A DNA stretch of 47,377 nt, taken from the IMG/VR virus record IMGVR_UViG_3300029893_000002; one strand, written 5' to 3'. Every line of letters starts with the position of its first letter. Position 1 is the stretch's first letter. Positions 10,378-47,377 of this stretch are shown here, piece by piece. The notes under the pieces were generated by a model, which did not search any database, was not told the DNA's origin, and saw only the letters and a program-made list of their open reading frames with translations. The stretch comes from a virus. Both the position numbers and the translations under genes were made by a program.

Positions 10378-10640
10378 CGGCGTTTCGCCCCCTCGCCCGG
10401 CGCGCTATCGAAGGCGTGGCGGCGTATCTCCGGGAGCTCCGCGTCCTCGGCGAGGATGGCGGCGCGCGCCTTGGCGGTCGCGACCGGGTGGATCATGCAC
10501 TCACCGTGGGCGATCTCCACGACGTTGATCGCGTCCATCTTGTCCACCGCCTCGACCGTGTATACGGTGCGGTAGCGGACCTCCTGCACCACGACGTACC
10601 GCTTCAACCGGCCACCCTCCGGGTTTGCTGCGCCGCTCAC
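10374..10640 (-). CDS. Hypothetical protein
   Basis: GTGA coupling to the MTase stop; KRYVVVQEVRYRTVYTVEA. Confidence 0.55.
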   Translation of the reverse strand: MSGAANPEGGRLKRYVVVQEVRYRTVYTVEAVDKMDAINVVEIAHGECMIHPVATAKARAAILAEDAELPEIRRHAFDSAPGEGAKRR

Positions 10641-20441: not shown

Positions 20442-20713
20442 GGCCAGATCTCCCGCGATGCCTTCGCGACGCTGATGTCGTCCTCGTCCCACACGAGGCT
20501 GATGTCGTCCTCGTCCCACACGAGGACCCACAGCCGGTCCCCGCGTGCGTATTGGCCTCCCAACCGCGCCTCCTCACACGCCAGATCGAGCGCCATGGAC
20601 GCGGCCTCGTCGGCGCTGTCAGCCACCGTGAGACGCTGGTCCCAGTCGGGCCAGGCGCACGGCCCGGACGCGGCAGGGTCCCCGTCGAAGATCGTCGTGG
20701 TGTACTGGGCCAT
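20438..20713 (-). CDS. Hypothetical protein containing a 27-bp tandem duplication
   Basis: LVWDEDDIS occurs twice (20471-20524). Confidence 0.6.
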   Translation of the reverse strand: MAQYTTTIFDGDPAASGPCAWPDWDQRLTVADSADEAASMALDLACEEARLGGQYARGDRLWVLVWDEDDISLVWDEDDISVAKASREIWP

Positions 20714-26601: not shown

Positions 26602-27537
26602 CTACATCCCCCATGCGCCGTCGAGGGCGCTCGTGTCGGGCTCGGCGCCAGCGCGTAGCTCGTCGCGTACCTGGCGTAGGCTGAGGCCGTGCTTGAACGT
26701 GTGGCCGATCGCGTCCTCGATCCGCACGTACTCGTCGAGCAGCGCGGGGTTGTGCTTGGCCGCGATCAGGAGGGCCGCCTTCGGCGCGAAAATGCAGAAT
26801 ACGCACGACAACCTGGGCATCCCGAGGTCGTAGGCGTGGTGGTAGCGGACCCCGCTCGACCGGATGCGCTCCCACACCTCGCGCTCGGTCCAGTGGTGGA
26901 TGGGAAGCCACGTGTCCACGTGGCGCTTCGCGGTGCAGCCCTCCCGGCTGTCGGTGCCCGGGGCGGCGCCGCGCACGAAGGGCGCCATGGCCGCGCGGTG
27001 CGGGCTCTCCTCGGCGCGCATCCCCATGCAGTTGAGCACCCGGAACGGTCGCCGCACGCCGTGCTCGCGGTGCAGGGCCGTGATGAGCTTGCGGATGGGG
27101 CCGCGCTTGTGATCGGACGTGCAGTAGCGGGCGTTGCCGGGCCCGGGCCACTTGCGGCGCCGCTCCACGTGGTCGAGCAGGTCGCCGAACCGCTCGCCCT
27201 TGCGATAGGGCGCGTCGGCGGACCGTCCGCCCGGGCTGATCCCGCCGATGCGGCTGACCGCCTCGAAGCGGACGCGGTAGGCGCTGGCCTGCTCTTCGGC
27301 GAGGGCCCGGGTCCCCTCCCACTCGACGCGCCCGAGGTCGGCGTGGACGACGACGATCCGGTCGCGCACGCCCGCGGCGTCGGCGAGCTGCACCAGGTAG
27401 TCGAGCATCGCCTGGCTGTCCTTGCCCGCGCTGCTACTGACCACGATGCGGTCGTAGCTTGCGAGGTCGGGCCCCTCCGGTGACCGCCGGATGAGACGGT
27501 CGACCGGAAAGAGCCCCAGCTGGTCGTCGGTGCTCAC
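26602..27537 (-). CDS. PAPS reductase-family (PP-loop, Fe-S) protein
   Basis: SSSAGKDS PP-loop, RYCTSDHK, GMRAEES, LPIHHW, RLSCVFC. Confidence 0.88.
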   Translation of the reverse strand: MSTDDQLGLFPVDRLIRRSPEGPDLASYDRIVVSSSAGKDSQAMLDYLVQLADAAGVRDRIVVVHADLGRVEWEGTRALAEEQASAYRVRFEAVSRIGGISPGGRSADAPYRKGERFGDLLDHVERRRKWPGPGNARYCTSDHKRGPIRKLITALHREHGVRRPFRVLNCMGMRAEESPHRAAMAPFVRGAAPGTDSREGCTAKRHVDTWLPIHHWTEREVWERIRSSGVRYHHAYDLGMPRLSCVFCIFAPKAALLIAAKHNPALLDEYVRIEDAIGHTFKHGLSLRQVRDELRAGAEPDTSALDGAWGM

Positions 27538-27764
27538 CCCCGGTCCCTCACGCGGGTGGGCTCGCCGTTGATCTCGAACCCGAGGACGGGCCCGTCGCCG
27601 CAGTGAAAGAGATCGGCCGCGTGCTCGGCGTCGTACGCCCAGTAGCGGTCGGCCCCAGTGTGATGGTGGTCGGCGCTGCACCGGTACGGGACGCGGTACA
27701 GGTAGAGAGTGCCGTGCTCACCGGCCTTGGTGCGGTAGCGCGGCCGCGATCGAGTCGTCGTCAT
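27534..27764 (-). CDS. Hypothetical protein
   Basis: GGAAGGAAGG RBS; coupled to the PAPS-reductase gene. Confidence 0.55.
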   Translation of the reverse strand: MTTTRSRPRYRTKAGEHGTLYLYRVPYRCSADHHHTGADRYWAYDAEHAADLFHCGDGPVLGFEINGEPTRVRDRG

Positions 27765-28704
27765 GCCTTCCTTCCTTCCTTCGCGGGATCGCCACCTTCC
27801 CCGTGGCGTCCCGCACGAGCTTGTCGGCGTCCGGGTCGAGCGGCGCCGCATCGGGGCCGGTCTCCCACCGTGCCTTGCGCCCCGGCTGGGCCACCGCGCG
27901 GCGTCGTCGTCGGCGCCTACCCCACTCGCCCCCGGCGCTGAGGCCGGTGACGCGCCAGCCCGCGGCGCGGTAGCAGGTGCCCGCCTCGCCGACGATCGTG
28001 TAGCTGACGATCCGGCGGTAGCCGAGGGCGACGGCGGCGCGGGTGAGGGCGGCGATGGCCTTGCTCGCCGCGTGCCGGGTCCCGTCGGATGCGACGCGGG
28101 TGATCTCCGCCGTCGCGCCGTCGTCCAGCTGGCGGGCGACGGGGCGACCGAGGATCGCGACGCACCGGAGCGCTCCGGCGCCGTCGCGGACGCCCACGGC
28201 GCACAGTCCCCCCGGGGGGGGCGGGAGGTGCGAGTGGTGGGCGTCTACCCAGCGGCGGGCGCGGGTGAGCGTCATGGGGGCGACGGCGAGGGGCCGGGGG
28301 GCATCCGGGGCGTGCTCGAGTCCGTCGGCGACGGTGAGCAGGGCCCGCTCGGCGTCCGGCTCGCGCCGGAGCCCGAGGGCGGCGACCAGCGCGATGAGAT
28401 CGGCGGGGCCGTCGCCCTCGATCCACTCGCCGTCCCACGCGGCCGCCCAGCCGGGGAAGTCCGGGTCCGTCGGATCGTGGTAGAAGGACGGATCCTCGGC
28501 GGGCTGCCATCCACGGGCGGCCAGCCAGTCCATGAGGTCGTGCTGGAGGAGCCGGAGGTGGGCCGGGTCGTCGAGTCGCCAGCCCGCCCGGGCGAGCCAG
28601 TCGCGGACCGCCCCGGGCGTGCCCGGCGGCTCGCCCAGCACGTCGAGGGCGGGGGGGTCCCCGGTCCCCCCACCCCCCAGCAGTAGCTCCAGCTGGTTCC
28701 CCAT
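27718..28704 (-). CDS. XF1762-family / Mom-like GNAT DNA-modification protein with an N-terminal extension
   Basis: WVDAHHSHL, VAILGRPVARQLDDG, EITRVASDG, ALGYRRIVSYT, EAGTCYRAAGW. Confidence 0.8.
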   Translation of the reverse strand: MGNQLELLLGGGGTGDPPALDVLGEPPGTPGAVRDWLARAGWRLDDPAHLRLLQHDLMDWLAARGWQPAEDPSFYHDPTDPDFPGWAAAWDGEWIEGDGPADLIALVAALGLRREPDAERALLTVADGLEHAPDAPRPLAVAPMTLTRARRWVDAHHSHLPPPPGGLCAVGVRDGAGALRCVAILGRPVARQLDDGATAEITRVASDGTRHAASKAIAALTRAAVALGYRRIVSYTIVGEAGTCYRAAGWRVTGLSAGGEWGRRRRRRRAVAQPGRKARWETGPDAAPLDPDADKLVRDATGKVAIPRRKEGRHDDDSIAAALPHQGR

Positions 28705-29282
28705 GGTGGCACCCACAGTCTAGCACACACGGACGCCCGGCGCCAGTCGAGTATTCACGGGGGGTTGCCGGAGGGGCCCCGGGGTGCCCCCGGGGGAAGT
28801 TTGTCAACGGGTGAAGGGTATCTGCCCTTAAACCCCTCCGGCCCGGATCGGGCCTTCCCGAGGCGCCGCGGGGCCCCGGGGCTTGTCAAGCTGTAAAGCC
28901 GGGCGGGGCCCCCCGAGGGGGCCCGCGGGCGCCGCGCGGACCGCTGGAGGGGAGGGGGGCCCGGAGGGGGGGGCCGGGCGTGCCCGCGCCACGGGGGGCC
29001 GGTCCGTCGGGCTGGGCACCGTTGGGTGGGCTGGGCCCCCGGCGGCCGACAGTCCCCGACTGCCCCCCGGGGGTGGCGGTTGGGGGCTTGCGGAGCGCCT
29101 CGGCGCCCCTCGGCGCCCCGCCCTCCGGCGACATCGGCGAGCGTCCAGCGCCCGCCCCCCCCACTGGCCCCCTTCGGACGCCGTGCGGGACGGCGTGCGT
29201 GCGGCCGTGTCGGTCGCCGTCGTGCGCCGCTTCCTGATAACCTGTTGCGGCAGCGATCGCTCGGCGGTTACCCTCGCGGTCC
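28705..29282. promoter_or_regulatory. Divergent early/late control region
   Basis: Strand switch; TGCTAGACT-GTGGG on the minus strand at ~28712-28725; two TTGTCAA sites; G/C-run hairpins. Confidence 0.5.
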
Positions 29283-29738
29283 ATGGGTGACGGGGCGAAG
29301 GAACCGGGGGCGCAGGTGCCGCTGAGCACCGATCCGTACGGCTACGTGGAACATGCCAACGTCCAGGTGGTCGCCGCGCCCGATGGGACGCCGAGGTTCG
29401 CGGGCGGACCGCCGCCCGAGCCTCCCGAGGGGCTCACGACCGACAACTTCGTGTGCTCGTCCGCGCCGGGCCGGGCGCCATGTCGGTACTACGGCGCGCT
29501 CGTGCTCGACGCCGAGGGGCAGATCCGCGGCTCGCACAAGCCGCGTCAGATCAAGCGGTACTGCACGAAGCTCGCGTCGCAGTCGGAGCTCATGGAGCTG
29601 ACCGACTCGAACGTGTACGCCTGCACGCTGCGCGACCCGCCCGATCCCGGCAGCCAGTCGGTCGTCGACCGGCTCGAGGAGCGGCAGCGCGAGCTGGCGG
29701 ACGACGCACAGAAGGAGGCCGGCGAGTTCGACATCTGA
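29283..29738 (+). CDS. Hypothetical Cys-containing protein
   Basis: First late-strand ORF; four spaced Cys. Confidence 0.65.
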   Translation: MGDGAKEPGAQVPLSTDPYGYVEHANVQVVAAPDGTPRFAGGPPPEPPEGLTTDNFVCSSAPGRAPCRYYGALVLDAEGQIRGSHKPRQIKRYCTKLASQSELMELTDSNVYACTLRDPPDPGSQSVVDRLEERQRELADDAQKEAGEFDI

Positions 29739-32668: not shown

Positions 32669-33040
32669 ATGGCTCGCCCAATGAATGCAACCGAGAAGCT
32701 CGAGGCCATGGCGCGCGCCGCGCATGAAGCGAACCGCGCCTACTGCATCGCCCTTGGCGACACGTCGCAGCCGCCGTGGGAATCGGCTCCCGAGTGGCAG
32801 CGCAAGAGCGCGATCGAGGGGGCTCGAGCGGCTCTCGATCCCAGCCAGACCCCCGAGAAGAGCCACGAGGGCTGGATGGCCCAGAAGATCGAAGACGGCT
32901 GGTCGTGGGGTCCCGTGAAGGATCCCGACGCCAAGACCCACCCGTGCCTCGTGCCCTACGACCAGCTGCCCGCCGAGCAGCGAGCGAAGGACTCCATCTT
33001 CCTCGCGGTCACGAGAGCCCTCGCCGCGGCGCTCGAGTAG
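32669..33040 (+). CDS. Phage RyR-domain protein
   Basis: AHEANRAYC, HEGWM...GWSWGPVKD...THPCLVPYDQLP...KD. Confidence 0.88.
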   Translation: MARPMNATEKLEAMARAAHEANRAYCIALGDTSQPPWESAPEWQRKSAIEGARAALDPSQTPEKSHEGWMAQKIEDGWSWGPVKDPDAKTHPCLVPYDQLPAEQRAKDSIFLAVTRALAAALE

Positions 33041-33933: not shown

Positions 33934-34069
33934 ACGAGCCCCTTGCCGCTTCTCGGGCGCACATGAGACACTCTCAGTGCTCTCGGCTGCGCGAGGGGTT
34001 GACGGAAAACCCCTGGTGTTGCGCTCCTCTGCATACTCTCGACGGTACAACGACGCTCCGGGCCGCGTG

Positions 34070-34615
34070 ATGGCGTACCGGGGGACGCCGTACACCGTCC
34101 AGAAGATGATCGAGCAGGCGCTCGGCCCGCGTGGCGAGCGGTCGATCCGTGTCCGCCGTCACGCCGAACAGATCGTGAACAACATCCGGCCGAAGGACTA
34201 CTCGAGCGAGCTCTGCGCGGTCTACCACTGGTGGTGCCGCGCGGGCCGCTACACGCGCGATCCGCTCCACGTCGAGTACCTCAAGGACCCCGAGCGCCTC
34301 GTCTCCGATGCCGAAGAGGGCCGGCTCGTGTGCGACTGCGACGAGCTCGCGCTCGGCATCGCGACCGACTGCATGATCCTCGGCAGCCCCGCGCAGTTCG
34401 TGACCGTCGGCTTTCGGCCGCGGGTTCCGGGTGGGCCCGAGATCTACACGCACGTCTTCGCGCGCGCCCAGGACCCTCGCACCGGCGTCTGGTGGGTACT
34501 CGACCCGGTCGCCGGTCGGCGGGTCGATCGTATGCTCGGCCGGGTGCGCCAGTTCAAGATCTACCCGGTCGATGCCGACACCTGGCAGGCCCTCCGAAGG
34601 AGGCACGGAGCGTGA
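34070..34615 (+). CDS. Transglutaminase-fold (Cys-His-Asp) protease-like protein
   Basis: YTRDP...E...P, CDCDE, THVF, WWVLDP. Confidence 0.82.
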   Translation: MAYRGTPYTVQKMIEQALGPRGERSIRVRRHAEQIVNNIRPKDYSSELCAVYHWWCRAGRYTRDPLHVEYLKDPERLVSDAEEGRLVCDCDELALGIATDCMILGSPAQFVTVGFRPRVPGGPEIYTHVFARAQDPRTGVWWVLDPVAGRRVDRMLGRVRQFKIYPVDADTWQALRRRHGA

Positions 34616-35325
34616 GGGCGCCCGGCTACATGGGAGCGGCGCCGGGGCCCGAGGATCCGATCCTCGCCGGCGCGGGGCGCGCGGCGTCGATCATCGCCAC
34701 GCGCGCACGCGAGCTGCCGCCAGGCGAGCGCCCACGCGCGGTCCGCGAGCTCCTCGCCATGTTCGGCCCGCGCGTGCCGGCCAAGGTCTCGAGGGCGGCC
34801 GCGAAGCTTGAGGCGGAGGGCTGGCCCGCGCCCGCGGCGCTCGAGCGGGCGATGCAGCTCACGATCGCCGATCGCCTCGTGAGCCGCTTCGTGGAGATCG
34901 GCGAACGGAGCCGCATCCGGCCCGGGCGCGGCGCCGAGGCCGTTCGCAAGCTCACGGCCGAGCTCTCGGGGCTTGGCGACGTCGGAAGCTGGCTCAAGGG
35001 GGCCGCCGAGGACGTCTGGAATGACGCCGTGAAGCCGGTCATGTGCCATCCGGTGACCCCGCTCGCCGCGGGCGCGGTCGCGAGCATCTCCTCCCCCGTG
35101 GCGGGCGCTGCGGCGGGCGTGGGCGCCGAGGTGGCCCAGGCCGTGGTCTGCCCGCCCGGAACGAAGCCCGCGCCCGCGGCGAGCCCCCCTGCGCCCCCGC
35201 CTCCGAAGGAGCCGAAGACGCCGAAGTGGCTGGGCCCGGCGATCATCGGGGGCGCCGCGCTCGTCACGCTCGGAATCGTGGCGCTCGGCGCCAAAAAGAA
35301 GAAGAAGGGGACCCCCGCATCATGA
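34612..35325 (+). CDS. C-terminally anchored membrane protein (paralog 1)
   Basis: GTGA coupling; internal SGLGD; TM followed by KKKKK. Confidence 0.75.
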   Translation: MRAPGYMGAAPGPEDPILAGAGRAASIIATRARELPPGERPRAVRELLAMFGPRVPAKVSRAAAKLEAEGWPAPAALERAMQLTIADRLVSRFVEIGERSRIRPGRGAEAVRKLTAELSGLGDVGSWLKGAAEDVWNDAVKPVMCHPVTPLAAGAVASISSPVAGAAAGVGAEVAQAVVCPPGTKPAPAASPPAPPPPKEPKTPKWLGPAIIGGAALVTLGIVALGAKKKKKGTPAS

Positions 35326-35894
35326 TGGACCCGATCCTCACCGCCGCCCGAAAGGAAGCGCGCCGTCTCATCCGGACGCTCAACCGAGAGCAGCTCTTTC
35401 GCCAGCTGCGCCGCGAGGGCCTCGAGCGCAAGGTGCGCGAGCTCCTCGGCCGCTACGAGGCCGAGGGGATCCCGTCCTCTGCCGCGCTCGACCAGGCCGT
35501 CACGGTGGCGCTCGCCGACGCCATCTTCAACGGCTTCGAGCGGCTCGGCGAGAGGGTGATGCGTCGTCAGGGCACGATGGCGGGGCTCGGCGCGACGGTG
35601 ACGGCCACCATCGGCGGCGCGGTCGGCCGCGGGCTCAAGGCGGCCGCATGCAGCGATCACACACGCGAGCTCCTGCGGCGGCTGAGCACGACCGATCGGG
35701 AGCGGTACGCGTCCGAGATGGGACTCGACATCGTCGCGGGGGTGGTGCAATGCCCCTCGTCAGCGCCCGATCCGGGCTACGTCGAGCCGCCCCCGGCACC
35801 CGAGCCGGAAAAGAGCAACATGCCGCTCATCATCGGCGGCGTGGCGGTCGTCGCCGTGCTCGGGGCGGCCGTTTTCATCGCGACGCGCAAGTAG
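35322..35894 (+). CDS. C-terminally anchored membrane protein (paralog 2)
   Basis: ATGA coupling; internal AGLGA; TM followed by RK. Confidence 0.75.
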   Translation: MMDPILTAARKEARRLIRTLNREQLFRQLRREGLERKVRELLGRYEAEGIPSSAALDQAVTVALADAIFNGFERLGERVMRRQGTMAGLGATVTATIGGAVGRGLKAAACSDHTRELLRRLSTTDRERYASEMGLDIVAGVVQCPSSAPDPGYVEPPPAPEPEKSNMPLIIGGVAVVAVLGAAVFIATRK

Positions 35895-35912
35895 CAGGGG
35901 AAACAGGTCAAC

Positions 35913-37148
35913 ATGGCAGGCACGAACGGACTCGGAGACTGGGAGGACGCGATCCTCGACCCGGATGTGGCGTCGGAGATGGGGTCCTACGACATGGAGG
36001 CGGACGACGAGTTCGCGCTCGACGACGACAGCCTCGACCTCGACGACATCGAGGCCGAGGGCGGCGCCTCCGAGCCCTGGGGGCCGGGCGCGGGTTACGC
36101 GCACCTGCCGATGAGCATGGCGGTCACCGATCGCGCGCCGCTCGGGTCGAGCGACGAGGAGCACCAGGTGGCGGCGAACGCGGCCGTCGAGCAGCAGCAG
36201 CGTGCCGAGGGCGACCCGGGCGACATGGTGCGCTACGACCGCTCGAGCTACGAGCGCGGCCACACCTACGGTTCGGGCATCTTCGACATGCCCGACGAGG
36301 GCTACCGCAGCCGCGACGGCAACGGCATCTTCGACACCGACTTCGCGATGCCCGACTACATCGGCGACGAGCCGGAGGTCGGCGTCTGGGAGTCGGAGAT
36401 GCTCGACCTCAACACCGGACAGCCGCGCGTCGTGCAGGGCAACACCTCGGGCGTGCAGCTCGCGCGCCAGGTGCCGCAGGGGCAGGCCGTCTTTTCGCCC
36501 TTCGCGCCGCCACCCTACGGCCAGTCGACCCCGGTTCGGACCGTGCCGGGCGTCCCCCAGCCGCGCGGCGCGTGGCTCGGCCGCATCGAGCAGTTCGGAA
36601 ACGCCGCGGCGGCCGCCCTTCTCGCCGAGGCTCACCGCGGCCGCTCCGGAAAGCACGCCGAGCGGTTCGTCCAGGCCGCGCTCGAGGCGCTCGGGCCCGG
36701 CAAGTCGCGCATCGCGATGGCGCAGGTCCGACGGCTTCGCAAGCTCGGCTACCCGCCGGGACAAGCCCTGCACCAGACGGTCGCCCACCTCATCATGCAC
36801 GCGACGGCCGACGATCTCCGGACCAAGGCGACGCAGCGGGACGCAAGCCCGCGGATGCCGTCGCTCGACCGGATGGCGGCCGCGACCGGGCTCGGCGCTT
36901 CGCCCCAACTGAACGATGCGGCTCGGCAGACGATCGGGCCGCTCACGCAGCTCGGGCCCGAGACGCAGAGCGAGCTCGAGAGCTTCTTCGCATCGCCCGC
37001 CGGGCGCGAGGCATCGCAGATGCTCGGAGAGGCGCAGGGCGCCCCCGGCAATGGGGTCGGCAAGTACCTGCTCCTCGGCGCGGCCGTTCTCGGCGCCGGC
37101 TACGTCGGCTGGCGGTGGTGGCAGGACAAGCAGCAGGGCGGAGCGTAG
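35913..37148 (+). CDS. C-terminally anchored membrane protein (acidic N-terminal half, paralog 3 domain)
   Basis: N-terminal NGLGD; G[SN]GIFD twice; TGLGA; C-terminal TM. Confidence 0.8.
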   Translation: MAGTNGLGDWEDAILDPDVASEMGSYDMEADDEFALDDDSLDLDDIEAEGGASEPWGPGAGYAHLPMSMAVTDRAPLGSSDEEHQVAANAAVEQQQRAEGDPGDMVRYDRSSYERGHTYGSGIFDMPDEGYRSRDGNGIFDTDFAMPDYIGDEPEVGVWESEMLDLNTGQPRVVQGNTSGVQLARQVPQGQAVFSPFAPPPYGQSTPVRTVPGVPQPRGAWLGRIEQFGNAAAAALLAEAHRGRSGKHAERFVQAALEALGPGKSRIAMAQVRRLRKLGYPPGQALHQTVAHLIMHATADDLRTKATQRDASPRMPSLDRMAAATGLGASPQLNDAARQTIGPLTQLGPETQSELESFFASPAGREASQMLGEAQGAPGNGVGKYLLLGAAVLGAGYVGWRWWQDKQQGGA

Positions 37149-37175
37149 TCGCCGGCAGACGGCGAGGAGGACCCA

Positions 37176-37430
37176 ATGGACGTGGTGAGCGCAGACGACA
37201 GCCAGGCCTACTCCGCCTACGCGAACCGCATGGCGGGGGCGCCGGTCGGCGCGCAGCAGCCGGCCTACCCGATGTACGGCGTGCCGACGCTCGGGCAGGC
37301 GGCGGGCCAGGCGGCGGGGATGCTTCGCAACCCGTTCGTCACGTTCCTGCTCGGCGCGGCGGTCGTCGGAAGCGTCTGGCTCTACGTCGACGTGATCAAG
37401 CCGATGCGCGAGCAGCGAAAGGGGCGGTGA
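37176..37430 (+). CDS. Small C-terminally anchored membrane protein
   Basis: GAGGAGG RBS; TM followed by a basic tail. Confidence 0.75.
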   Translation: MDVVSADDSQAYSAYANRMAGAPVGAQQPAYPMYGVPTLGQAAGQAAGMLRNPFVTFLLGAAVVGSVWLYVDVIKPMREQRKGR

Positions 37431-38155
37431 TGAGCCGGTACCACACCATCTACAACCCGTACGTCTTCGCCAACTACGGCCAGCCGCAGCGCCGCCGCGA
37501 GTACGTCTCGCCCGTCGTCTTCCAGACCGGGGCGCCCATGCTGCACTCGGAGCTCGACCAGGACTACTCGTCGCTCGCGCCGGGCGTCGGCCTCATCGGC
37601 AACTACGAGCGCGTCGGGGTGGGATCGGGCGACGGGCTCGAGGGGCTCGGCGCGATCCCGGACGTCACGCTCCCGCGCGACACGGTGGTGCGAGCCTCCG
37701 GTGTGCCGCACAACATCTCGTCGCAGAACGCGTCGTCGGCCGCGAGCCTGGTCAAGCGCCGGCTCGAGAACAAGGGCTGGTACTACGTGAACAAGGTCGG
37801 CTGGGTCGCGGGCGGCAAGATCGACATCCAGCTGCGCCTGAGGGATCCGCGTCACGTGCGCGACGTCCTCGAGAACGTCCGCAACGCGGGCAAGGGCGTC
37901 GAGGGAAGCAAGCGGGCCTACTTCGAGGTGCCGAAGATCGAGTGGTCCTACCCGAAGGGCTACGCGCCGCCCGCGGACGAGGCGACCGAGGATCTGTTCT
38001 CGGAGATGCCCACCGAGGCATCGGACGGCGGCGAGCCCTTCTGGGCGAAGCGGGTCGCGGGCCTTCCGGTGTGGGCCATCGGCCTCGGCAGCGTGGCGCT
38101 CGTCGGGACGGTGGTCGTCGTGGCACTCAAGAAGAAGGGTGGGAGGGCGGCGTGA
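37430..38155 (+). CDS. C-terminally anchored membrane protein
   Basis: TGATG coupling; GLEGLGA; GLPVWAIG...KKK. Confidence 0.78.
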   Translation: MSRYHTIYNPYVFANYGQPQRRREYVSPVVFQTGAPMLHSELDQDYSSLAPGVGLIGNYERVGVGSGDGLEGLGAIPDVTLPRDTVVRASGVPHNISSQNASSAASLVKRRLENKGWYYVNKVGWVAGGKIDIQLRLRDPRHVRDVLENVRNAGKGVEGSKRAYFEVPKIEWSYPKGYAPPADEATEDLFSEMPTEASDGGEPFWAKRVAGLPVWAIGLGSVALVGTVVVVALKKKGGRAA

Positions 38156-39897
38156 GCTACCGCGGCAGAGGCCTCGGCGTGGCACTCAAGCCCGCGAGCA
38201 CGACCGTCATGGCGCGGGGGGCGGTGGCGACGAAGGCGAGCGCGCGCTCGAGCGGCGGCCTTGCGCCCGGCAGCGGTGGTCCCGGGCTCGCGCCAGGGAC
38301 GACGGGCCCGTCGGTGACCGAGTCGGCGGCCGCCTGGACGGGCCGGACCGGACCAACCCTCACCGAGTCGACGCGGCGCGAGGCGACGACGCCCGCCCGG
38401 GCGCCGACCGCGCCTCCGGTCCGGAGCGGCGCCGAGGCCGTCTTCGAGGAGGCCGCCCGGCGCGGCCCATCGGCGCCGGTCATCTACGTCCCGGACGCAT
38501 GCGTCGATGCGCGCCTCGAGCACGCCCCGAGCTACTCGGCGCCTCCGCGTGAGCTGCCGCCCGGGTCGATGGTGGTGTGGGGGGTGCAGCTCCCCGAGGG
38601 GCTGAGCAAGTCGAAGGGCGACGCGATCGCGCGGTTCATCCGGCGCCGACTCAACCCGAAGCTCAAGGAGGTGACGACGCGCACCAACCCCACGGGCATC
38701 GGCAGCTGCAACGAGGACATGCGCAACCGGCCCGTCGAGGCCGCGGTCTCGCACAAGGAGTGCTACCGCGGCCTCCGCGAGGTCCAGAGGGAGACGCCGG
38801 CGCCGCACAAGTGGTTGCGCCGGTCGATCCTCACGCTCTACCGCGCGCGTGGCACGACTGTCGAGTACGTCCCGGACATGCGGCTGCTCGTCGTTCGCGT
38901 GATGATCAAGCACGGCTGGGAGCCGGTGAATCCGGAGAAGCTCAGCGCGGAGTCGGGGGGGATGTCGGGCCGCGAGGTGCCGTTCAGCCTGGGCGCGGGC
39001 GTCGCGCAGGCACCAGGCAGCACGGTCGAAAAGGGTCACCCGCCGCTGGCGAGCTACATCCCGGGCAGCATCAGCGCGGCGCTTCGGGCCGAGGGAATCC
39101 CGGCTTCGGCCGTGACCATCCCGGTGCCGGTGTACGTCCCGGCCGAAGAGCGCGAGGGCCGCGATGTCACGACGCTCACCCGGATCATGGCGCTTCACGC
39201 GACCGACCTCTGGCGCGACTTCGCGGTCGTCATGGGCCGCTGGTTCACGCGCGCGGTCGAGATGCTGCCGCAGATCGCGATCGCCAAGGGTGGCGTGCAG
39301 GGCCGTGAGAAGATCGCCGCGGCGGTCGAGGTCCTCTCGCGCTACGACTCCATCGCCTCTTCGGTCGTCTCGCGTGCCGAGTCGGCCGCCTCGAGCATGT
39401 CGCCCCAGGAGGCGTCGGCGGTGATCGCGTCGCTTCGCTCGGAGCTCAACGAGGCCGAGCGCAAGGTCTCCCGCGGGATGGGCGTCCGGATGGCCGCCTC
39501 CTTCGAGCACGACGCCCAGAACCTCAAGCCGAAGTACGAGCGCTTCGTGCGCACGTACGTGCGGCACCTTCGCACGACCGATCCCGTGCGTCGCCAGTTC
39601 GCCGAGTGCCACGCCATCAAGCTCGCCAACGAGGACATGGCGCGGATGCACGGCGTCTACATGGGCCTCGCGCGCGAGATGGCCGCGCTCGAGGCCGAGC
39701 GGGATCGGCTGGCGAGCAACATCCCTGCGATGCAGGACGCGTTCGCGAGGGCGCGCGCGCGCCTCGACGAGATCGAGGCCTCGCTCGACCTCGGCTGGTA
39801 CGAAAAGAAGGTGGGCGGCCTTCCGGTCTGGGCTTGGGGCCTTCTCGGCGCGGCCGGGGTCGGCGGCGGGATCTGGTACCTCCGGAGGAAGAAGTGA
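38152..39897 (+). CDS. Large C-terminally anchored protein with coiled-coil stalk
   Basis: Starts SYRGRGLG; ends GLPVWAWGLLGAAGVGGGIWYLRRKK. Confidence 0.8.
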   Translation: MSYRGRGLGVALKPASTTVMARGAVATKASARSSGGLAPGSGGPGLAPGTTGPSVTESAAAWTGRTGPTLTESTRREATTPARAPTAPPVRSGAEAVFEEAARRGPSAPVIYVPDACVDARLEHAPSYSAPPRELPPGSMVVWGVQLPEGLSKSKGDAIARFIRRRLNPKLKEVTTRTNPTGIGSCNEDMRNRPVEAAVSHKECYRGLREVQRETPAPHKWLRRSILTLYRARGTTVEYVPDMRLLVVRVMIKHGWEPVNPEKLSAESGGMSGREVPFSLGAGVAQAPGSTVEKGHPPLASYIPGSISAALRAEGIPASAVTIPVPVYVPAEEREGRDVTTLTRIMALHATDLWRDFAVVMGRWFTRAVEMLPQIAIAKGGVQGREKIAAAVEVLSRYDSIASSVVSRAESAASSMSPQEASAVIASLRSELNEAERKVSRGMGVRMAASFEHDAQNLKPKYERFVRTYVRHLRTTDPVRRQFAECHAIKLANEDMARMHGVYMGLAREMAALEAERDRLASNIPAMQDAFARARARLDEIEASLDLGWYEKKVGGLPVWAWGLLGAAGVGGGIWYLRRKK

Positions 39898-40283
39898 GCT
39901 ACGCCCTCGGCCGGACCTATCTCACCGCCGAACAGGTGCGCGCCGGGACAGCCTCGCGTGCCGAGGCCGATCGCGCATTCGATCTGGCGCGGCTCTGGTG
40001 TCCGGAGAAGGTCGGCGAGATGAAGAAGCCGACCACGGTGCGACGGCTTCTCATCCAGAGCCCGAGCCAGTGCAGCCCCGACAAGGCGCCCTGCGTCCGC
40101 TACGAGCCGGTGGCGCTCAATGCCGAGCGCTGGCTCGCCGAGCACTACAACTGCTACCCGCCCGAGGCCGCCCCGGACGAGTCCTGGTGGACGAGCGAGA
40201 TGGCGGGCGTTCCGATGTGGGGCTGGGTCGCCGGCGCCGTCGTGCTCGTCGGCGGGGCGGCGGTCTGGGCGATGACGAGGTGA
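39894..40283 (+). CDS. C-terminally anchored Cys-containing protein
   Basis: Starts SYALG; ends GVPMWGWV...TR. Confidence 0.75.
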   Translation: MSYALGRTYLTAEQVRAGTASRAEADRAFDLARLWCPEKVGEMKKPTTVRRLLIQSPSQCSPDKAPCVRYEPVALNAERWLAEHYNCYPPEAAPDESWWTSEMAGVPMWGWVAGAVVLVGGAAVWAMTR

Positions 40284-40286
40284 GCC

Positions 40287-40781
40287 ATGTACGCGGTTCT
40301 TGGAGCAACGGCGATCGAGTCCCCCCCGAATCCGTTTCGGGGCGGCATCACGTGGCGAGGCGGAGCTCGGCGCGGCGCCGTCACGTGGGCGCCCCGCCTG
40401 GGTGACGCGGACGACGATGCGGCGCGCGAGCGAGCGCGCCAGCTGTACGACAAGGCGACGCGCGCGTTCAACGCGGGCCAGTACGAGACGGCCGCCAGGT
40501 ACTACAACCAGGCCTACAACACGCGCAACCACCCCGACGTGCTCATCGCGCTCGGCGAGGCCGAGATGCGCGCCGGCAACCTCACGTCGGCCGAGGTGGC
40601 GTTCGAGATGTACCTGCGCGACGCGCCCGACGGCGCCCGGCGTGAGCAGGCGCGAAAGCGCCTTGCCGAGATCCGCAAGCGCCTCGGTCCGGTTGGGCCG
40701 GGGCCGGCGGCCTACGTGCTGCTCGGTCTCGGAGCCCTGGGGCTCGGGTACGTGGGGTACAATGCGCTGAGGTCTCGATGA
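40287..40781 (+). CDS. TPR-repeat protein with C-terminal TM
   Basis: LYDKATRAFNAGQYETAARYYNQAY...ALGEAEMRAGNLTSAEVAFEMYL. Confidence 0.78.
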   Translation: MYAVLGATAIESPPNPFRGGITWRGGARRGAVTWAPRLGDADDDAARERARQLYDKATRAFNAGQYETAARYYNQAYNTRNHPDVLIALGEAEMRAGNLTSAEVAFEMYLRDAPDGARREQARKRLAEIRKRLGPVGPGPAAYVLLGLGALGLGYVGYNALRSR

Positions 40782-41449
40782 GCCAGCAGGACTACGATCC
40801 CTACCAGATCGACTACGGGTACGACCCGTCGATGGGCAACTACTACCCGGTGGACCTGGCGCCGGTCGATCCGCACGCTATGGGCGAGAGCGCGGCCGAT
40901 CCCTCGCAGGTGCCGGGCACCGCCCCGGCCCAGGTGGTGCCCCATCCCCAGGCACCCCAGGGCCCGGTCGCGCCGGGCTGGCTCAAGGTGCGCAAGCTCG
41001 GCATCCCGTACTGGGCGTGGATCTTGGGGCTCGGGGCCGCCGGCTACTACCTCTACCATCGCCACCAGAAGAAGAAGCTCGAGGCGAACGACGACGAGAC
41101 GCCGAGGCTCGGTTCGGGCGACGACTGGGCGCCGAGCCGGAGCCGGTTCGCATCGAACCTCGAGCGCTACCTCTCGGAGAAGAAGGCGCGGGCCAAGGTC
41201 TTTCACGACGCCGACGACGCGAAGAAGGCCGGGGTAAAGAACCCCTCGCCGCTCGTCAACGTCAAGGTCTCGCGCGCCTCGAAGCTCCACGAGGACAAGT
41301 CGTTCCGGGAGCTCGCCGCGAGCGAGGGGCTCGAGCCCGTGCGCCTCGACGAGACGACCGTTGGCCTCGTGCCGGCCAAGAACGGCGATCGCGGCCGCGA
41401 GTGGGAGAAGTACATCGACGCCCTGCGTGACGAGGGCCAGGAGGTCTGA
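40778..41449 (+). CDS. Membrane protein with central GIPYWAW anchor
   Basis: GIPYWAWILGLGAAGYYLYHRHQKKK. Confidence 0.78.
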   Translation: MSQQDYDPYQIDYGYDPSMGNYYPVDLAPVDPHAMGESAADPSQVPGTAPAQVVPHPQAPQGPVAPGWLKVRKLGIPYWAWILGLGAAGYYLYHRHQKKKLEANDDETPRLGSGDDWAPSRSRFASNLERYLSEKKARAKVFHDADDAKKAGVKNPSPLVNVKVSRASKLHEDKSFRELAASEGLEPVRLDETTVGLVPAKNGDRGREWEKYIDALRDEGQEV

Positions 41450-41452
41450 CCG

Positions 41453-41677
41453 ATGAGCTATCGACTGGGAACGACGCAGGAGGCCGCGAACACGAACGGC
41501 AACGCCACCGCGAGCGCCGACGGTCAGAAGCCGCCCACCGAGCCGTCGCCCGAGGACAAGCCTGGCCTCGTCGAGCGGGCCAAGGAGCAGCTCACCGAGC
41601 GCGGACCGCTCGGCGTCCCGTACTGGGGCTGGGGGCTCGGCGTGGGCGTCCTGCTCTGGGCGATGATGAGGAGGTAG
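41453..41677 (+). CDS. Small C-terminally anchored protein
   Basis: Starts MSYRLG; ends GVPYWGWG...RR. Confidence 0.75.
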   Translation: MSYRLGTTQEAANTNGNATASADGQKPPTEPSPEDKPGLVERAKEQLTERGPLGVPYWGWGLGVGVLLWAMMRR

Positions 41678-41679
41678 GG

Positions 41680-42153
41680 ATGGGCTACTCGATGGGCGCC
41701 GATCCGGCCGGATCGGATCTTCCGACGGTCAACATCACGGTCCGCGCGCTCCAGCGCGAGCTCGTGCGCGCCGGCTTCGACATCGGCCGCTCGGGCGTCG
41801 ATGGTCTCTGGGGTCCCGCGACCAAGGGTGCGCTCGACAGGGCGCTCGCCCGCACGGGGCTCACCGGTGGCGCCTGGCGCTACTCGGCGAGCCGGGACCG
41901 GGTCACTCTGACGGCGGCCGCCTGGTCGGCCATCGGCAGGCTGCCGGCGGGGGCCGGTGGCGAGCGGCAGTCGAGGACGCGCCGACCGTCGTCGCCCTCG
42001 TCGCCCCCCGCCACCGAGGACTTCACGGTGCCGGTGGCGAGCCAGCGGGCCGGGATGCTGGGCGGCGTGCCGCTCTGGGCGTGGGGGCTGCTCGGCGCCG
42101 CGGGCGTCGGGGTCTGGCTCTACACCCGCAAGCCCCGACGGGCGGCCGCCTAA
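41680..42153 (+). CDS. Peptidoglycan-binding domain protein with C-terminal anchor
   Basis: VRALQRELVRAGFD...VDGLWGPATKGAL (PG_binding_1 pattern); GVPLWAWG anchor. Confidence 0.8.
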   Translation: MGYSMGADPAGSDLPTVNITVRALQRELVRAGFDIGRSGVDGLWGPATKGALDRALARTGLTGGAWRYSASRDRVTLTAAAWSAIGRLPAGAGGERQSRTRRPSSPSSPPATEDFTVPVASQRAGMLGGVPLWAWGLLGAAGVGVWLYTRKPRRAAA

Positions 42154-42171
42154 GACGGCCGAGGAGGATCG

Positions 42172-43005
42172 ATGGCGTACCAGCGGATCTTGCAGCCCGG
42201 GCCGCCCGGCTCGGGGGGATCGAGCTCGCCCGCGCCAGTGAGCTCGACGGCGTGGGCGGCGGCGAACGCGGCGGCGAACGCCATCGGCCTCATGATGGAG
42301 GATCGGTTCCTCGACGACGTCGAGTACGACCACGGGAGGTACGTCGCCGCGATGCGTCGGGCTGCGAGCACCGCGCAGCAGCTACGACAGCGCGTGGGAG
42401 AGGCGATCGGCTCGTCCCGGCTCCAGATGCCCGCTGCCGACGCGCAGCAGATCGTGCTCGGATCGCTGATGCAGGCCAAGAAGATGGTCGCCGCCCTGCG
42501 CGTGCTCGCCTACTCCGACAGTTCGCAGGCGCGCGCGCTCGAGCGGCGCGCGGCGCAAGTCCTCCCGCAGCACCTGCAGGCGACCAACCGATTCCTCCAG
42601 CAGGCGAAGCGCGCCGCCTCGTCCTCCTCCGGCACCTCCGGCATCGGCTTTCTGATGGCGGCGGCGCTCGTCGCGCTCGGGGTCTATCTGATCGTCGATC
42701 TCGCCACGACGACCGAAACGGTGGGAGAGCTCAACGAGGCGCTCCGGACCTGCATCGAGGCCGGCTGCACCCCAGCCGAACGACAGGTGATCATCGACGA
42801 GTGGAAGCGCCGGAGGGAGGCACTCGACCAGCAGGAGAAGGAATCCGGGTGCGGTCCCTTCGAGTTTCTGTGCGGCGCGGCCGGCGACGTCATTCGCTGG
42901 GTGGCGCTCGGGGGCGCGGTGCTCGTCGGTGGCTACCTTCTGTGGGTGACCTGGCCTGCCCTTGCGGGCGGCGGACGGGCCATCCGGGCGAAGCTCAAGA
43001 GGTAG
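42172..43005 (+). CDS. Helical membrane protein with two hydrophobic segments
   Basis: SGIG precedes the first TM; C-terminal TM and basic tail. Confidence 0.75.
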   Translation: MAYQRILQPGPPGSGGSSSPAPVSSTAWAAANAAANAIGLMMEDRFLDDVEYDHGRYVAAMRRAASTAQQLRQRVGEAIGSSRLQMPAADAQQIVLGSLMQAKKMVAALRVLAYSDSSQARALERRAAQVLPQHLQATNRFLQQAKRAASSSSGTSGIGFLMAAALVALGVYLIVDLATTTETVGELNEALRTCIEAGCTPAERQVIIDEWKRRREALDQQEKESGCGPFEFLCGAAGDVIRWVALGGAVLVGGYLLWVTWPALAGGGRAIRAKLKR

Positions 43006-43008
43006 AAG

Positions 43009-43431
43009 ATGGCGCTCTACTCGGTGTGGGACTGGAACCGCAACGTCTACCGCGTCTACGCGGACAGGCGACCGGTCTCGGTCGGCGACGACCCGGATCC
43101 GCCCCGGCCTGGGCGCGTCCACATCCTCGGGGCGGTTCCCGACGAGCATGTCAAGCGCCTTCCGAAGGGGGCGCGGTTCGTCTCGTACTCACACGCGCCG
43201 AGGGGCGAGATCGTGCGCCATCCGGCGGTGAGCGGGAAGGCGATGGGGGGCCTCGGCGCGCTCGCCGATCGGCACTCGGGCATCGTCGAGGGGGCGCTCG
43301 TAGGCGCGGGCGTGGCGGTCCTGCTCGGCTACCCGCTCCAGATCAGGCGCGACTGGCGGGCCCAGTCGGTGTTCCGCGACGCGGCGCTCGGCGCCGGCAT
43401 CGGGGTTCTCTACGGCCTGATCATCGGATGA
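43009..43431 (+). CDS. Membrane protein
   Basis: MALYSVWDW...; MGGLGA; two C-terminal hydrophobic helices. Confidence 0.75.
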   Translation: MALYSVWDWNRNVYRVYADRRPVSVGDDPDPPRPGRVHILGAVPDEHVKRLPKGARFVSYSHAPRGEIVRHPAVSGKAMGGLGALADRHSGIVEGALVGAGVAVLLGYPLQIRRDWRAQSVFRDAALGAGIGVLYGLIIG

Positions 43432-44153
43432 GCCAGATCGTCGAAAGAATGGAGCGACTCGAGGCCGAAAGGGCGCGCCTCAAGGAGAAGCGCCGAGAGC
43501 GGATGTACGAGCTGCTCGAGGCGGACGAGCACGAGCGCTGGCTCGAGGAGCGCAAGGAGTTCGACCGGGAGATCGCCGCCCTCGAGAGCGAGATCGTTCG
43601 CCTGGGCCACGAGCACCGATCGATGCGTCGAAACCCGGCGATGACGGCACGTTTCGGCAAGGAGGTCGCTCCGCCGTCGAGTCTTTCCAAGGCCGAGCGC
43701 ATCTACCGCACCTTTCACCAGAAGGACCCGCGGCGCGTCGTCCAGCTGAACCACCGGATCCCCACGAAGGTCGGCAAAGCGGGCGAGCTCATCAGCGTCT
43801 CGTACCGGACCGACAAGTGGCACGACGACGGCCACGACGTCGACTACAAGCACGTCGACGACCCCGGCGTCTTCGTCTACGAGCCCTGGGGCGCGCAGAG
43901 CTGGCTCGAGGAAGCGAAGCTGCCGCGGCGGCCGCCGAGCGAGAACGAGGGACTCGCTCTTCTCGGCAAGCACCTCGGCTACTACATTCGTCGCGTCGGC
44001 GACGGCGAAGTGCTCGAGGCGACGCCGCGCAACACCTACCTGTTCTGCGCGCCGGACGGCAAGATGCTGTTCGTCTACCACCCAAAGAGAGGGTTTCTCG
44101 CCATCATGGCGGGCGGTAGGCTGTCGGTCCGCGCCGAGGGGATCGACGGCTGA
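43428..44153 (+). CDS. Hypothetical protein: coiled coil - MRRNP - globular domain
   Basis: ATGA coupling; YRTFH, YRTDK...YKH, GGRLSVRAEGIDG. Confidence 0.75.
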   Translation: MSQIVERMERLEAERARLKEKRRERMYELLEADEHERWLEERKEFDREIAALESEIVRLGHEHRSMRRNPAMTARFGKEVAPPSSLSKAERIYRTFHQKDPRRVVQLNHRIPTKVGKAGELISVSYRTDKWHDDGHDVDYKHVDDPGVFVYEPWGAQSWLEEAKLPRRPPSENEGLALLGKHLGYYIRRVGDGEVLEATPRNTYLFCAPDGKMLFVYHPKRGFLAIMAGGRLSVRAEGIDG

Positions 44154-45418: not shown

Positions 45419-47377
45419 ATGGCTAGCGGAATCGTCTATCGGCGAAGCACCGAGCGGCAGGCCAAGGCCTACCAGCGATCTCCGCGGATGGAGGCCAACC
45501 CGGGCGTTGCCGCACTCACGGTCGTCAACCCGGGACGGCCTCCTCGCGCCGGACGGCGGTACTCCGCCCGACGGTCTTCCAAGCGACCTGTGAAGGAGAG
45601 ACGAACGATGGCGTACCGAAGGACGGCGCTCAGGAGGAACTACGCACCCGCGGACAAGAAGGCCATTCTCCAGGCCGCCCGCGGCATCGACGCGCCCAAG
45701 CGCAAGCGGTCGGGCACGAAGCGGCGCTCGAGCAAGAAGCCGCGTGCGCGGCGCTCGAAGAAGGTGAGCCGCGCCTACTCGCAGTCGGTGTCGGCGGGGC
45801 GCCGCTACCAGGCGGCCGCGACGGCGTCGGCGAGCAAGCCGCGGCGCCGGCGCAAGAAGAAGACGAGCGGCCGCAAGAGCACGAAGCGGAGCCGGGCGGC
45901 GAAGAAGGCCTGGCAGACGCGGAAGCGTCGCTACGGCAAGAAGGGGACGAAGCGCTCGAGCCGCCGCAAGAGCCGCCGCCGGACGAGCGCCCGCAAGTCG
46001 AAGCGGCGCTCGAGCCGCAAGACGAGCCGGCGCCGCTCGAGCCGCAAGAGCTCGAAGCGGAGCGCAGCGGCGAAGAAGGCCTGGCGCACGCGCAAGCGGC
46101 TCTACGGCAAGAAGGGGACGAAGCGCTCCTCGCGTCGCCGCAAGAGCCGTCGCTCGAGTCGGGGCCGAAAGCGCGTCGCCCACGCGCGCCGCCGCTCGAG
46201 CCGCCGCCGGACGAGTCGCCGCAAGGGCAGCCGCCGCAAGAGCCGGCGGCGCACGAGCCGCCGCCGGACGACCGCGACGGTGGGCCGCAAGGTCTACCTC
46301 ACCGGCGTCCCGTCGATCGACCGCCAGCTCTCCCGCGGCCGCATCCCGGTCGCCGTCCCGCAGTACCGGCACAAGGGGCGCCGCGTGTCGGTCAAGGCCT
46401 ACCCGAAGCGGGTCCGCGGGCGGCTCAGCCGCAAGGCGACCGTCCGGCCGCGTCGCCGGCGGTCGAAGCGGCGCACGAGCAAGAAGGTCGCTTCGGCCTA
46501 CCACGCGGGCGGCCGCGGGTACGCGTCGGGCATGGAGGCGTTCATGGCCGGGCAGATGGCCGCCAACCCCCGCATGACCATCTACCAGGACGGCCGGGGC
46601 CGCTCGTTCATGGTCACGCCGCTCGGCCCGAAGGCGAGCAAGACCTCGAAGCGTCGCAGCATCCCGGTGCTCGTGGCGCCCCACCTCATCCCGCGCGCCC
46701 GCGTGACGAAGCGGCGCCGCAAGAAGAAGAAGTCCGCCGCCGCGATGGCGAGCAACCGAAGGAGGACCAGCATGAGAAGGAACCCGAGGAGCCGCCGCCG
46801 CCGCAGCCGCCGCCGTGGCAGCCGGCGTGGGACGCGGCGGCGCAGCATCCGCCGTCGCATGCGGCGGAACCCGAGGATCTTCGGCACCGACGTCGTGCGG
46901 GGCGTGCTCGTCCCGGTCGGCGTCGCCGGAGGAGGGTTCCTCGCCGCGCGCGTCGCGGGCAACGCCGTGGCGCAGGTCGATGCGCTGTCGAGCCGCACGG
47001 GCGAGATCGGCGCCCGCGCGATCGGCAACGGCCTCGGCATCCTGGCCACGCTGTTCGCGAGCCGGCAGGTGCCGCGCCTGCGGCCCTACCAGGGCGCGCT
47101 CGTGACGGGCATGGGCATCGCCCTGCTCGACAACCTCATCGCGCAGTTCGGCGGTGAGGGCGGCCCGCTGTCGTTCCTCGGCAGCGATCCGTACTCGCGC
47201 GGCCTGCTCGGCGCCTACTACGCCGACACCTCGCACGCGGGAGCGCCGTACGCGTCCATGATGGGCGAGTACGTCCGCGAGCCGGTGCTCGGCGAGTACG
47301 TGTCCGAGGACGTGGACGCCGCCATCGGCGAGTACGTCCAGGACGGCGGCTACTTCGAGGCGGGCGTCAACCCGGCC
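45419..47377 (+). CDS. Protamine-like Arg/Lys/Ser-rich membrane-anchored protein, 3'-truncated (putative virion core/DNA-condensing precursor)
   Basis: Manual translation: no stop from ATG 45419 to the window end. Long R/K/S tracts, repeated MxxNP, hydrophobic segments, then GEYV repeats. Missing from the ORF track, presumably because it lacks a stop. Confidence 0.85.
   Translation, partial: MASGIVYRRSTERQAKAYQRSPRMEANPGVAALTVVNPGRPPRAGRRYSARRSSKRPVKERRTMAYRRTALRRNYAPADKKAILQAARGIDAPKRKRSGTKRRSSKKPRARRSKKVSRAYSQSVSAGRRYQAAATASASKPRRRRKKKTSGRKSTKRSRAAKKAWQTRKRRYGKKGTKRSSRRKSRRRTSARKSKRRSSRKTSRRRSSRKSSKRSAAAKKAWRTRKRLYGKKGTKRSSRRRKSRRSSRGRKRVAHARRRSSRRRTSRRKGSRRKSRRRTSRRRTTATVGRKVYLTGVPSIDRQLSRGRIPVAVPQYRHKGRRVSVKAYPKRVRGRLSRKATVRPRRRRSKRRTSKKVASAYHAGGRGYASGMEAFMAGQMAANPRMTIYQDGRGRSFMVTPLGPKASKTSKRRSIPVLVAPHLIPRARVTKRRRKKKKSAAAMASNRRRTSMRRNPRSRRRRSRRRGSRRGTRRRSIRRRMRRNPRIFGTDVVRGVLVPVGVAGGGFLAARVAGNAVAQVDALSSRTGEIGARAIGNGLGILATLFASRQVPRLRPYQGALVTGMGIALLDNLIAQFGGEGGPLSFLGSDPYSRGLLGAYYADTSHAGAPYASMMGEYVREPVLGEYVSEDVDAAIGEYVQDGGYFEAGVNPA
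45896..46128 (+). repeat. Intragenic direct repeat encoding AAKKAW[QR]TRKR[RL]YGKKGTKRS
   Basis: Copies at 45896-45957 and 46067-46128. Confidence 0.85.

Follow-up and report, generated by a model that had tools for sequence, protein, structure and literature searches.

A hidden protamine-like gene with predicted membrane helices, linked to a capsid-like gene in large, tailless-looking bacterial viruses

The 47,377-nucleotide stretch of viral DNA studied here (IMG/VR record IMGVR_UViG_3300029893_000002, hereafter the window) ends inside an open frame on the plus strand, 45419..47377, that encodes an extremely basic protein with predicted membrane helices. This hidden frame is a real, conserved gene, cut by the contig end. 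Next to a capsid-like gene, it is the signature gene of a so far undescribed lineage of tailless-looking viruses of bacteria, large in genome (110-170 kb), and its product probably compacts the viral DNA against a membrane. We lean, by a modest degree, towards the view that its product is a structural protein of a large, probably membrane-containing bacterial virus with a jelly-roll capsid, in which it would couple genome, membrane and shell.

The frame opens with an ATG and runs for 653 codons without a stop past the end of the window. A preliminary description, made from the letters alone, had pointed to an uninterrupted frame missing from the track of open reading frames (ORFs), and a listing that allows open ends returns exactly this one (45419..47377, plus strand, 653 aa); it was left off the default list because ORFs running off the source are skipped there. 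Arg-rich open off-frames are common in 70% GC DNA such as that of the window, and a spurious ORF produced by high GC content was therefore considered; we regard this as practically negligible and refuted by codon-position GC, family size and substitution pattern. GC content at codon positions 1, 2 and 3 is 0.62, 0.64 and 0.93, the value of 0.93 being reached in the 45419 frame only, and the third positions of a long antisense ORF overlapping the gene fall on a column with about 0.6 GC. Among three relatives, the ratio of nonsynonymous to synonymous substitution rates (dN/dS) does not exceed 0.5 (basic part, 0.44-0.50; C-terminal domain, 0.23-0.29), and the family described below numbers 283 clusters that include AT-rich members.

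A word-based search with the non-repetitive C-terminal part returned two homologs (825 and 959 aa), which both start in alignment with the first residue of the window protein; this conserved N-terminus pins the start and confirms it at 45419. Both homologs extend 130-170 residues past the 3' end of the window. The size of more than 650 aa first given for the protein thus holds for the 653 visible residues, but the protein is incomplete: the visible ORF would be the first ~80%, with about 130-170 C-terminal residues lacking in the window. We looked for the missing C-terminus among short family members and none fitted, the candidates belonging to other clades. No promoter or terminator was detected by a scan of the DNA preceding the gene, megablast of the region against GenBank phages gave no match, and exact-pattern scans of IMG/VR and JGI metagenome contigs for the 3' end of the window were equally negative. 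An independent assembly of the same virus, Logan contig SRR5011275_1350 (L006), stops at about 45901 of the window, inside the Arg array; Logan data also extend the genome at least 33.8 kb further upstream. As L006 and the present contig both end inside the basic gene, Arg repeats break assemblies, and such genomes are therefore easily missed or split.

The visible protein contains 200 Arg and Lys and 24 Asp and Glu. Residues 1-481 (132 Arg, 56 Lys, 62 Ser, 28 Thr and 8 Asp and Glu) carry a net charge of +180, and the final 172 residues are slightly acidic (12 Arg and Lys, 16 Asp and Glu). An N-terminal module (aa 1-44; 45419..45550) with two Asn-Pro sites is defined by invariant alignment columns, and its motif recurs family-wide. 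It is followed by 437 residues of low-complexity Arg/Lys/Ser/Thr arrays (aa 45-481; 45551..46861), delimited by composition, of variable length in relatives and interspersed with short conserved islands. The arrays of several hundred residues dominated by Arg, Lys and Ser that had been noticed at the outset are present in the translation, and the duplicated AAKKAWxTRKR module noticed with them corresponds to a 118-nt direct repeat (45870..46158) whose two copies, at 45870-45987 and 46041-46158, lie 171 nt apart and are 81% identical.

The basic part meets the hydrophobic domain at M-R-R-N-P (aa 481-485; 46859..46873), a candidate cleavage site. The corresponding junction, [YMFLV]-R-[RK]-N-[QGPA], is found at this border in 114 of 122 family members, and its Asn is nearly invariant in alignments. 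Beyond it lie three hydrophobic Gly/Ala-rich helices, putative membrane spans by AlphaFold2 modelling and hydropathy, at about aa 489-518, 529-550 and 558-578 (46883..47152). Their positions were transferred through the family alignment from the copy at locus L004, for which the AlphaFold2 model (60-sequence alignment) has helices at 13-42, 53-74 and 82-102 with a predicted local distance difference test score (pLDDT) of about 90-95; outside the helices, the model of the C-terminal domain consists of disorder plus one short helix. The Gly-rich hydrophobic part mentioned in the preliminary description is real and conserved, with three predicted helices. All Foldseek neighbours of the helix domain are non-significant, and almost all of them are integral membrane proteins. 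The flank on the N-terminal side is strongly positive, loop 1 near-neutral, loop 2 +3 and the C-terminal side acidic; these charges fit the positive-inside rule for three putative spans with the N-terminus inside and the C-terminus outside. An acidic/aromatic tail then begins with three G-E-Y-V repeats (47258..47338), recognised by repeat detection and by near-invariant G-E-Y columns. Relatives have two to six copies of G-E-Y-[VF] together with a conserved acidic segment, and a conserved C-terminal motif that lies beyond the end of the window.

An exhaustive search with a profile of the C-terminal domain recovered 283 representative clusters at E<=1e-3, of which 195 pass <=1e-10 and 72 pass <=1e-30. 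The majority measure 570-940 aa and carry this domain at the C-terminus. The window protein matched no Pfam or PHROG family at E<=0.01, and the profile had no usable match among PDB sequences, leaving the family without a solved structure match. Up to the junction, 68 full-length representatives have a median of 35% Lys and Arg, 2.8% Asp and Glu and a net charge of +134 (range +25 to +194), and the C-terminal domain is about neutral. The cationic arrays vary in length and sequence even among close relatives, with short conserved islands in between. A relative of 37% GC uses Lys/Ala/Pro repeats in place of the Arg/Ser/Thr of GC-rich members; as this AT-rich member keeps a cationic array made of other residues, charge is conserved and not sequence, and charge is the family-wide selected trait of the N-terminal part.

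Two kinds of smaller gene accompany the long one. Short paralogs of 200-280 aa (L008:1619-2233, L009:1427-2116 and about 4000-4840 in L028-L039), all from one clade, open with a brief basic stretch, which is followed by the junction motif, the helices and the C-terminal motif. They are inserted after the long basic gene and before the capsid-like one, with two copies at locus L033. A second protamine-like gene of 155-186 aa (L001:18494-18961, L007:15636-16196) has up to 44% Lys and Arg, has no hydrophobic domain and is located some 6 kb beyond the capsid-like genes, on their downstream side.

Wherever the flanks of a relative are readable, a gene for a capsid-like protein of 227-260 aa comes after the basic gene, at a distance of about 200 nt or beyond one to two short paralogs, and genes of ~300 and ~250 aa come next. 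This order of basic and capsid-like gene holds in L001, L003, L004 and L007. At seven genome-collection loci, which span 37-72% GC and 31-85% identity of the capsid-like neighbour, a long family member lies no more than 5 kb upstream of the capsid-like gene. Among 19 IMG/VR loci, 17 have an upstream long family member by profile, one further has a basic 762-aa ORF, and the remaining record lacks the upstream sequence. The capsid-like gene is the most conserved of the lineage, with at least 248 clusters, the best 120 at >=59% identity.

The model of the 227-aa capsid-like protein is an eight-stranded sandwich (pLDDT 68.5; predicted template modelling score 0.63). Its top structural match is the capsid protein of Sulfolobus polyhedral virus 1 (SPV1; Z 6.6), followed by P23-77 VP17 (Z 6.0), HCIV-1 and HHIV-2 (both Z 5.6), and further by the PRD1/PR772 penton. 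The circovirus capsid and iridovirus major capsid proteins (MCPs; double jelly-roll) are also among the matches, and for the P23-77 VP17 type Foldseek gave E about 1e-2. These matches are weak but consistently viral capsid proteins, and the model suggests that the neighbour is a viral-type single jelly roll. The preliminary description had placed the frame possibly just upstream of the major capsid gene. A gene for a jelly-roll-modelled, capsid-like protein does lie just downstream in all relatives examined, and the window's own downstream DNA lies outside the stretch; in place of the double jelly roll that had been expected there, the neighbour, of 227-260 aa, models as a single jelly roll. 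Profile-profile comparison of the three consecutive downstream proteins gave no similarity, and they are therefore not recognisable paralogs. An Atlas look-up of the ~300-aa protein returned unnamed viral clusters only. A predicted complex of the capsid-like protein with the C-terminal tail scored 0.01, which counts neither for nor against binding.

The gene lies in a co-oriented late block that starts at 29283 and is almost without Pfam or PHROG family matches. About 12 consecutive late proteins (34612..43431, plus strand), none with a Pfam or PHROG family, each end in a predicted hydrophobic helix and a short Lys/Arg tail; these candidate virion membrane proteins, recognised by hydropathy, agree with the membrane-associated context that had been proposed. 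Upstream of the basic gene, two late genes of 140 and 241 aa (43009..44153, plus strand) are conserved and syntenic with relatives (blastp 53-59% identity to L001 and C115).

The preliminary description had named an HK97-type capsid or terminase as evidence that would count against it. These families (PF05065, PF03237, PF03354) had no match in four near-complete relatives (records of 130-171 kb, 96-100% estimated completeness), a search in which portal families were not included. Likewise, PF05065 and PF03237 had no match on three viral contigs from metagenome-assembled genomes (MAGs), and the window itself has no structural PHROG or Pfam match, including none to an HK97 capsid or terminase. 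A conserved FtsK/A32-type packaging ATPase, also anticipated, was not found: DUF87/HerA and FtsK had no match in the four near-complete relatives, A32 gave a sub-threshold P-loop match only, and the late genes of the window contain no Walker A motif. None of the five packaging-ATPase families searched has an above-threshold match in the four near-complete genomes, which may yet encode a divergent packaging ATPase. One relative encodes a HerA/DUF87-type ATPase with C-terminal winged-helix domains (L018:4912-6633; G001:C115 64912-66636). It is probably accessory, and we rejected it as the packaging ATPase of the lineage, as it was found in one relative and in none of the four near-complete genomes.

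Asparagine is distributed in a regular fashion in the basic arrays. With the junction excluded, the basic parts of 61 representatives contain 719 Asn, and a hydrophobic residue stands three positions before Asn in 55% of cases, compared with a background of 16%. The enrichment at that position is 9-fold for Met, 6-fold for Phe and about 3.6-fold for Leu and Tyr; directly after Asn, Pro is enriched 3.5-fold. All seven Asn (7/7) of the window's basic part fit this [MFLY]-x-x-N-type rule. The recurrent motif is a possible processing site, which would suit a precursor, and it resembles either a protease site with hydrophobic P4, as in adenoviruses, or a site of Asn-dependent self-cleavage. L/M-x-x-N-P sites are also found exactly at the domain borders of other late proteins (window 43428-44153; L001:5946-7955; L001:20748-22352). 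A 669-aa protein of L001 has four such sites between repeated modules, of which only the last is homologous to the 241-aa protein of the window, in what looks like a polyprotein-style layout.

If the protein is structural, its N-terminal polycationic array of 300-600 residues would neutralise and compact the 110-170 kb of viral DNA, and its three Gly-rich helices would anchor it in a viral lipid layer. The acidic/aromatic GEY tail would lie on the opposite face of the membrane, where it may touch the capsid, and one protein would link all three layers of the particle. The [MFLY]-x-x-N sites, especially the one at the border of basic part and helices, may more speculatively be maturation cleavage sites. 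In L001, several single-span late proteins have long poly-Arg tails past the helix; with these, one side of the membrane would be lined by many cationic segments. DNA binding, membrane insertion, topology and processing are steps that we infer. The lack of matches to the searched packaging ATPases, which is an absence of hits only, is compatible with a shell that encloses pre-condensed DNA. The original idea of a genome-condensing core precursor tethered to an internal viral membrane is partly supported: its predictions of context held (capsid-like neighbour, late block of predicted membrane proteins, no HK97 capsid or terminase match), except that the neighbour models as a single jelly roll and that no conserved FtsK/A32-type ATPase was found.

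Several points weigh against the structural role proposed here. The helices are only borderline in hydropathy (peaks about 1.7), one of them contains an Arg, and four family members have far less basic N-terminal parts (net +25 to +39). The capsid assignment comes from a medium-confidence model (pLDDT 68.5) with middling similarity values (Z 6.6; E of about 1e-3 to 1e-2 in Foldseek), and in the window's own genome the link between basic gene and capsid gene rests on relatives. There is no lipid-synthesis or packaging gene linking the lineage to known membrane viruses, and low-complexity basic sequence can serve other roles. Topology raises a further difficulty. A virus assembled in the PRD1 manner has the cytoplasmic side of its membrane turned to the capsid and not to the DNA, and a +180 domain cannot plausibly be exported; under this model the basic domain would therefore lie between membrane and shell. 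Either assembly departs from the PRD1 type, or the basic part joins capsid and membrane.

According to this last possibility, which we consider unlikely, the array is a capsid-membrane glue or a size ruler that lies between anionic lipid and the inner capsid, cementing or measuring the shell like PRD1 P30 or the chlorovirus tape-measure protein. By the positive-inside rule the basic part would be cytoplasmic, which is the capsid side in PRD1-type assembly, and the gene for this long, predicted disordered protein adjoins the capsid-like genes. A ruler is however difficult to reconcile with array lengths that differ by more than 100 residues among proteins ~74% identical over shared regions (825, 941 and 959 aa), and lipid head groups could be bound with far less than the +100 to +190 of net charge that each copy carries. 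The composition, moreover, tracks that of protamine- or H1-like DNA binders.

The conserved Gly-rich helices, predicted with high confidence, would also suit a genome-delivery (pilot or ejection) protein, in which they act, glycine-zipper-like, as a channel or in fusion at entry while the basic part enters with the DNA and shields it. The conserved Asn site directly upstream of the helices recalls reovirus mu1 and nodaviruses, whose membrane-active peptides are released in an Asn-dependent manner, and the short paralogs consist of helices and tail only. We nonetheless find delivery improbable as the main function: searches of Pfam, PHROG, PDB and Foldseek gave no similarity to known pilot or tube proteins, and the conserved charge of several hundred basic residues would be left unexplained. 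Delivery can coexist with a structural role in the virion. The composition alone would equally allow a membrane-anchored non-virion factor that acts at the cell membrane during infection, where it would compact or sequester DNA of the host or replicating DNA of the virus. This we hold to be very unlikely, since the link of the gene to its capsid-like neighbour is strict over a range of 31-85% in MCP identity and 37-72% in GC content, and since the gene belongs to the co-oriented late block, a long way from the genes for replication and modification.

Returning to the structural reading, a bolder version of it can be put forward tentatively, with less than even expectation that it holds in full. 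A widespread lineage would package its genome as a membrane-anchored protamine-type nucleoprotein, with a jelly-roll capsid, dozens of membrane proteins, no match to the searched packaging ATPases, co-assembly instead of pumping, and Asn-specific maturation. This would make it an independent bacterial counterpart of the adenovirus, baculovirus or SPV1 cores.

The remainder of the window and its relatives give some indication of the virus as a whole. Positions 2-28716 hold replication and modification genes (DUF927 primase-helicase, C5 methylase, 3'-phosphoadenosine-5'-phosphosulfate (PAPS) reductase-like, Mom-like). The modification set is encoded on the minus strand, at 10637-12712 (a 691-aa C5 cytosine methylase) and at 26602-27537 and 27718-28716 (PAPS reductase-like, Mom-like), and suggests a modified viral genome. 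In the late block, a 199-aa protein (34016-34615) without Pfam or PHROG match shares 43% identity with its counterpart in a relative for which the capsid-like protein reaches only ~33%; comparison with PDB sequences gave nothing usable, and it is a candidate maturation protease. A small late protein (32681-33040) carries an RyR domain (PF02026, E 2e-13); its identity to the copy of C182, a distant relative, is 56%. In the closest relatives, but not in the window, the place directly upstream of the basic gene is taken by a conserved sulfotransferase-like gene (PF03567, with a weak match for some copies; L001:8262-9011, L003:407-1141, L007:5214-5954). In L004, a TnpB/Cas12f-like gene (20458-20684; OrfB_IS605 and Cas12f1-like TNB domains) adjoins the structural block.

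The MAG contig C182 (G002:C182, L021-L027) is 122,730 bp long and its last 100 nt recur at position 41; it is probably a complete circular genome of about 122.6 kb. IMG/VR relatives include records of up to 171 kb and one of 159,872 bp with terminal repeats. MAG labels name bacteria of the Planctomycetes-Verrucomicrobia-Chlamydiae (PVC) group at 4/8 loci, binning of viral contigs being weak evidence. Hosts are probably mostly Planctomycetota and other PVC bacteria; a myxobacterial host is disfavoured by the same labels.

To our knowledge, bacterial viruses are thought to package naked DNA by a motor, and genomes condensed by protein are known in viruses of eukaryotes and in some of those of archaea. 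Literature searches returned no description of the lineage, the protein or its combination of features. If the structural reading is true, it would represent a new way of organising a phage genome, by means of a membrane-anchored protein with a charge of +100 to +190 encoded beside a capsid-like gene. The gene would also open a way into a virus group that is large and unexplored (at least 248 capsid-gene clusters, contigs of up to 171 kb, probable Planctomycetota/PVC hosts), and would bear on the origin of jelly-roll viruses with membranes and nucleoprotein cores.

Among known systems, membrane viruses with jelly-roll capsids offer a parallel in gene content. PRD1, PM2, P23-77, HHIV-2 and HCIV-1 likewise have many small membrane proteins (predicted ones in our case) beside jelly-roll capsid genes, and with respect to viruses with two MCPs (P23-77, HHIV-2, HCIV-1, SH1), the first downstream gene product reaches Z 6.0 to P23-77 VP17 and 5.6 to HCIV-1/HHIV-2. 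PRD1/PM2/P23-77-type viruses differ in their genomes of 10-31 kb, in having no protamine-like protein and in having an FtsK/HerA-type packaging ATPase, a type without match in the four near-complete relatives here. The capsid protein of SPV1, of the Portogloboviridae, tops the structural matches of the neighbouring gene product, at a middling Z of 6.6, whereas SPV1 is archaeal, has a genome of about 20 kb against 110-170 kb here, and shows no sequence similarity. The C-terminal domain of the hepatitis B virus (HBV) core protein and the N-terminal arm of the circovirus capsid protein also tie poly-Arg covalently to a structural element, and hold nucleic acid against the wall of the container; those arms are 30-40 residues on the capsid protein, whereas several hundred are found here on a separate, predicted membrane protein.

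The arrays themselves are of the same Arg/Ser/Thr style as those of protamines, baculovirus P6.9 and VP15 of white spot syndrome virus (WSSV). In eukaryotic protamine-type arrays, Ser and Thr allow control by phosphorylation. Those proteins are small and soluble (50-80 aa), while the family described here has 650-950 aa with conserved non-basic modules and a membrane domain; the window protein, with at least 653 aa and three hydrophobic helices, is thus not a small (<100 aa) soluble protamine, and the Lys/Ala/Pro repeats of AT-rich relatives are closer to histone H1 tails than to protamines. Adenovirus pVII and pre-mu are likewise Arg-rich, and the cationic composition of the VII/mu type is shared (net +180 in the N-terminal part of the window protein, +134 at the family median). 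The adenoviral proteins condense double-stranded DNA in a virion with a jelly-roll capsid, a function that would correspond to the one suggested here, and are precursors cut by the adenoviral protease at short motifs with hydrophobic P4. In contrast, the window protein is 3-5 times longer, has three hydrophobic helices, a GEY tail and a bacterial host, and its candidate site ends in Asn where the adenoviral one ends in Gly; comparison with the Pfam adenoviral core families gave no sequence relation. By analogy, the protein may work like adenovirus VII/mu, protamines, P6.9 or the SPV1 core, but it is a member of none of these families.

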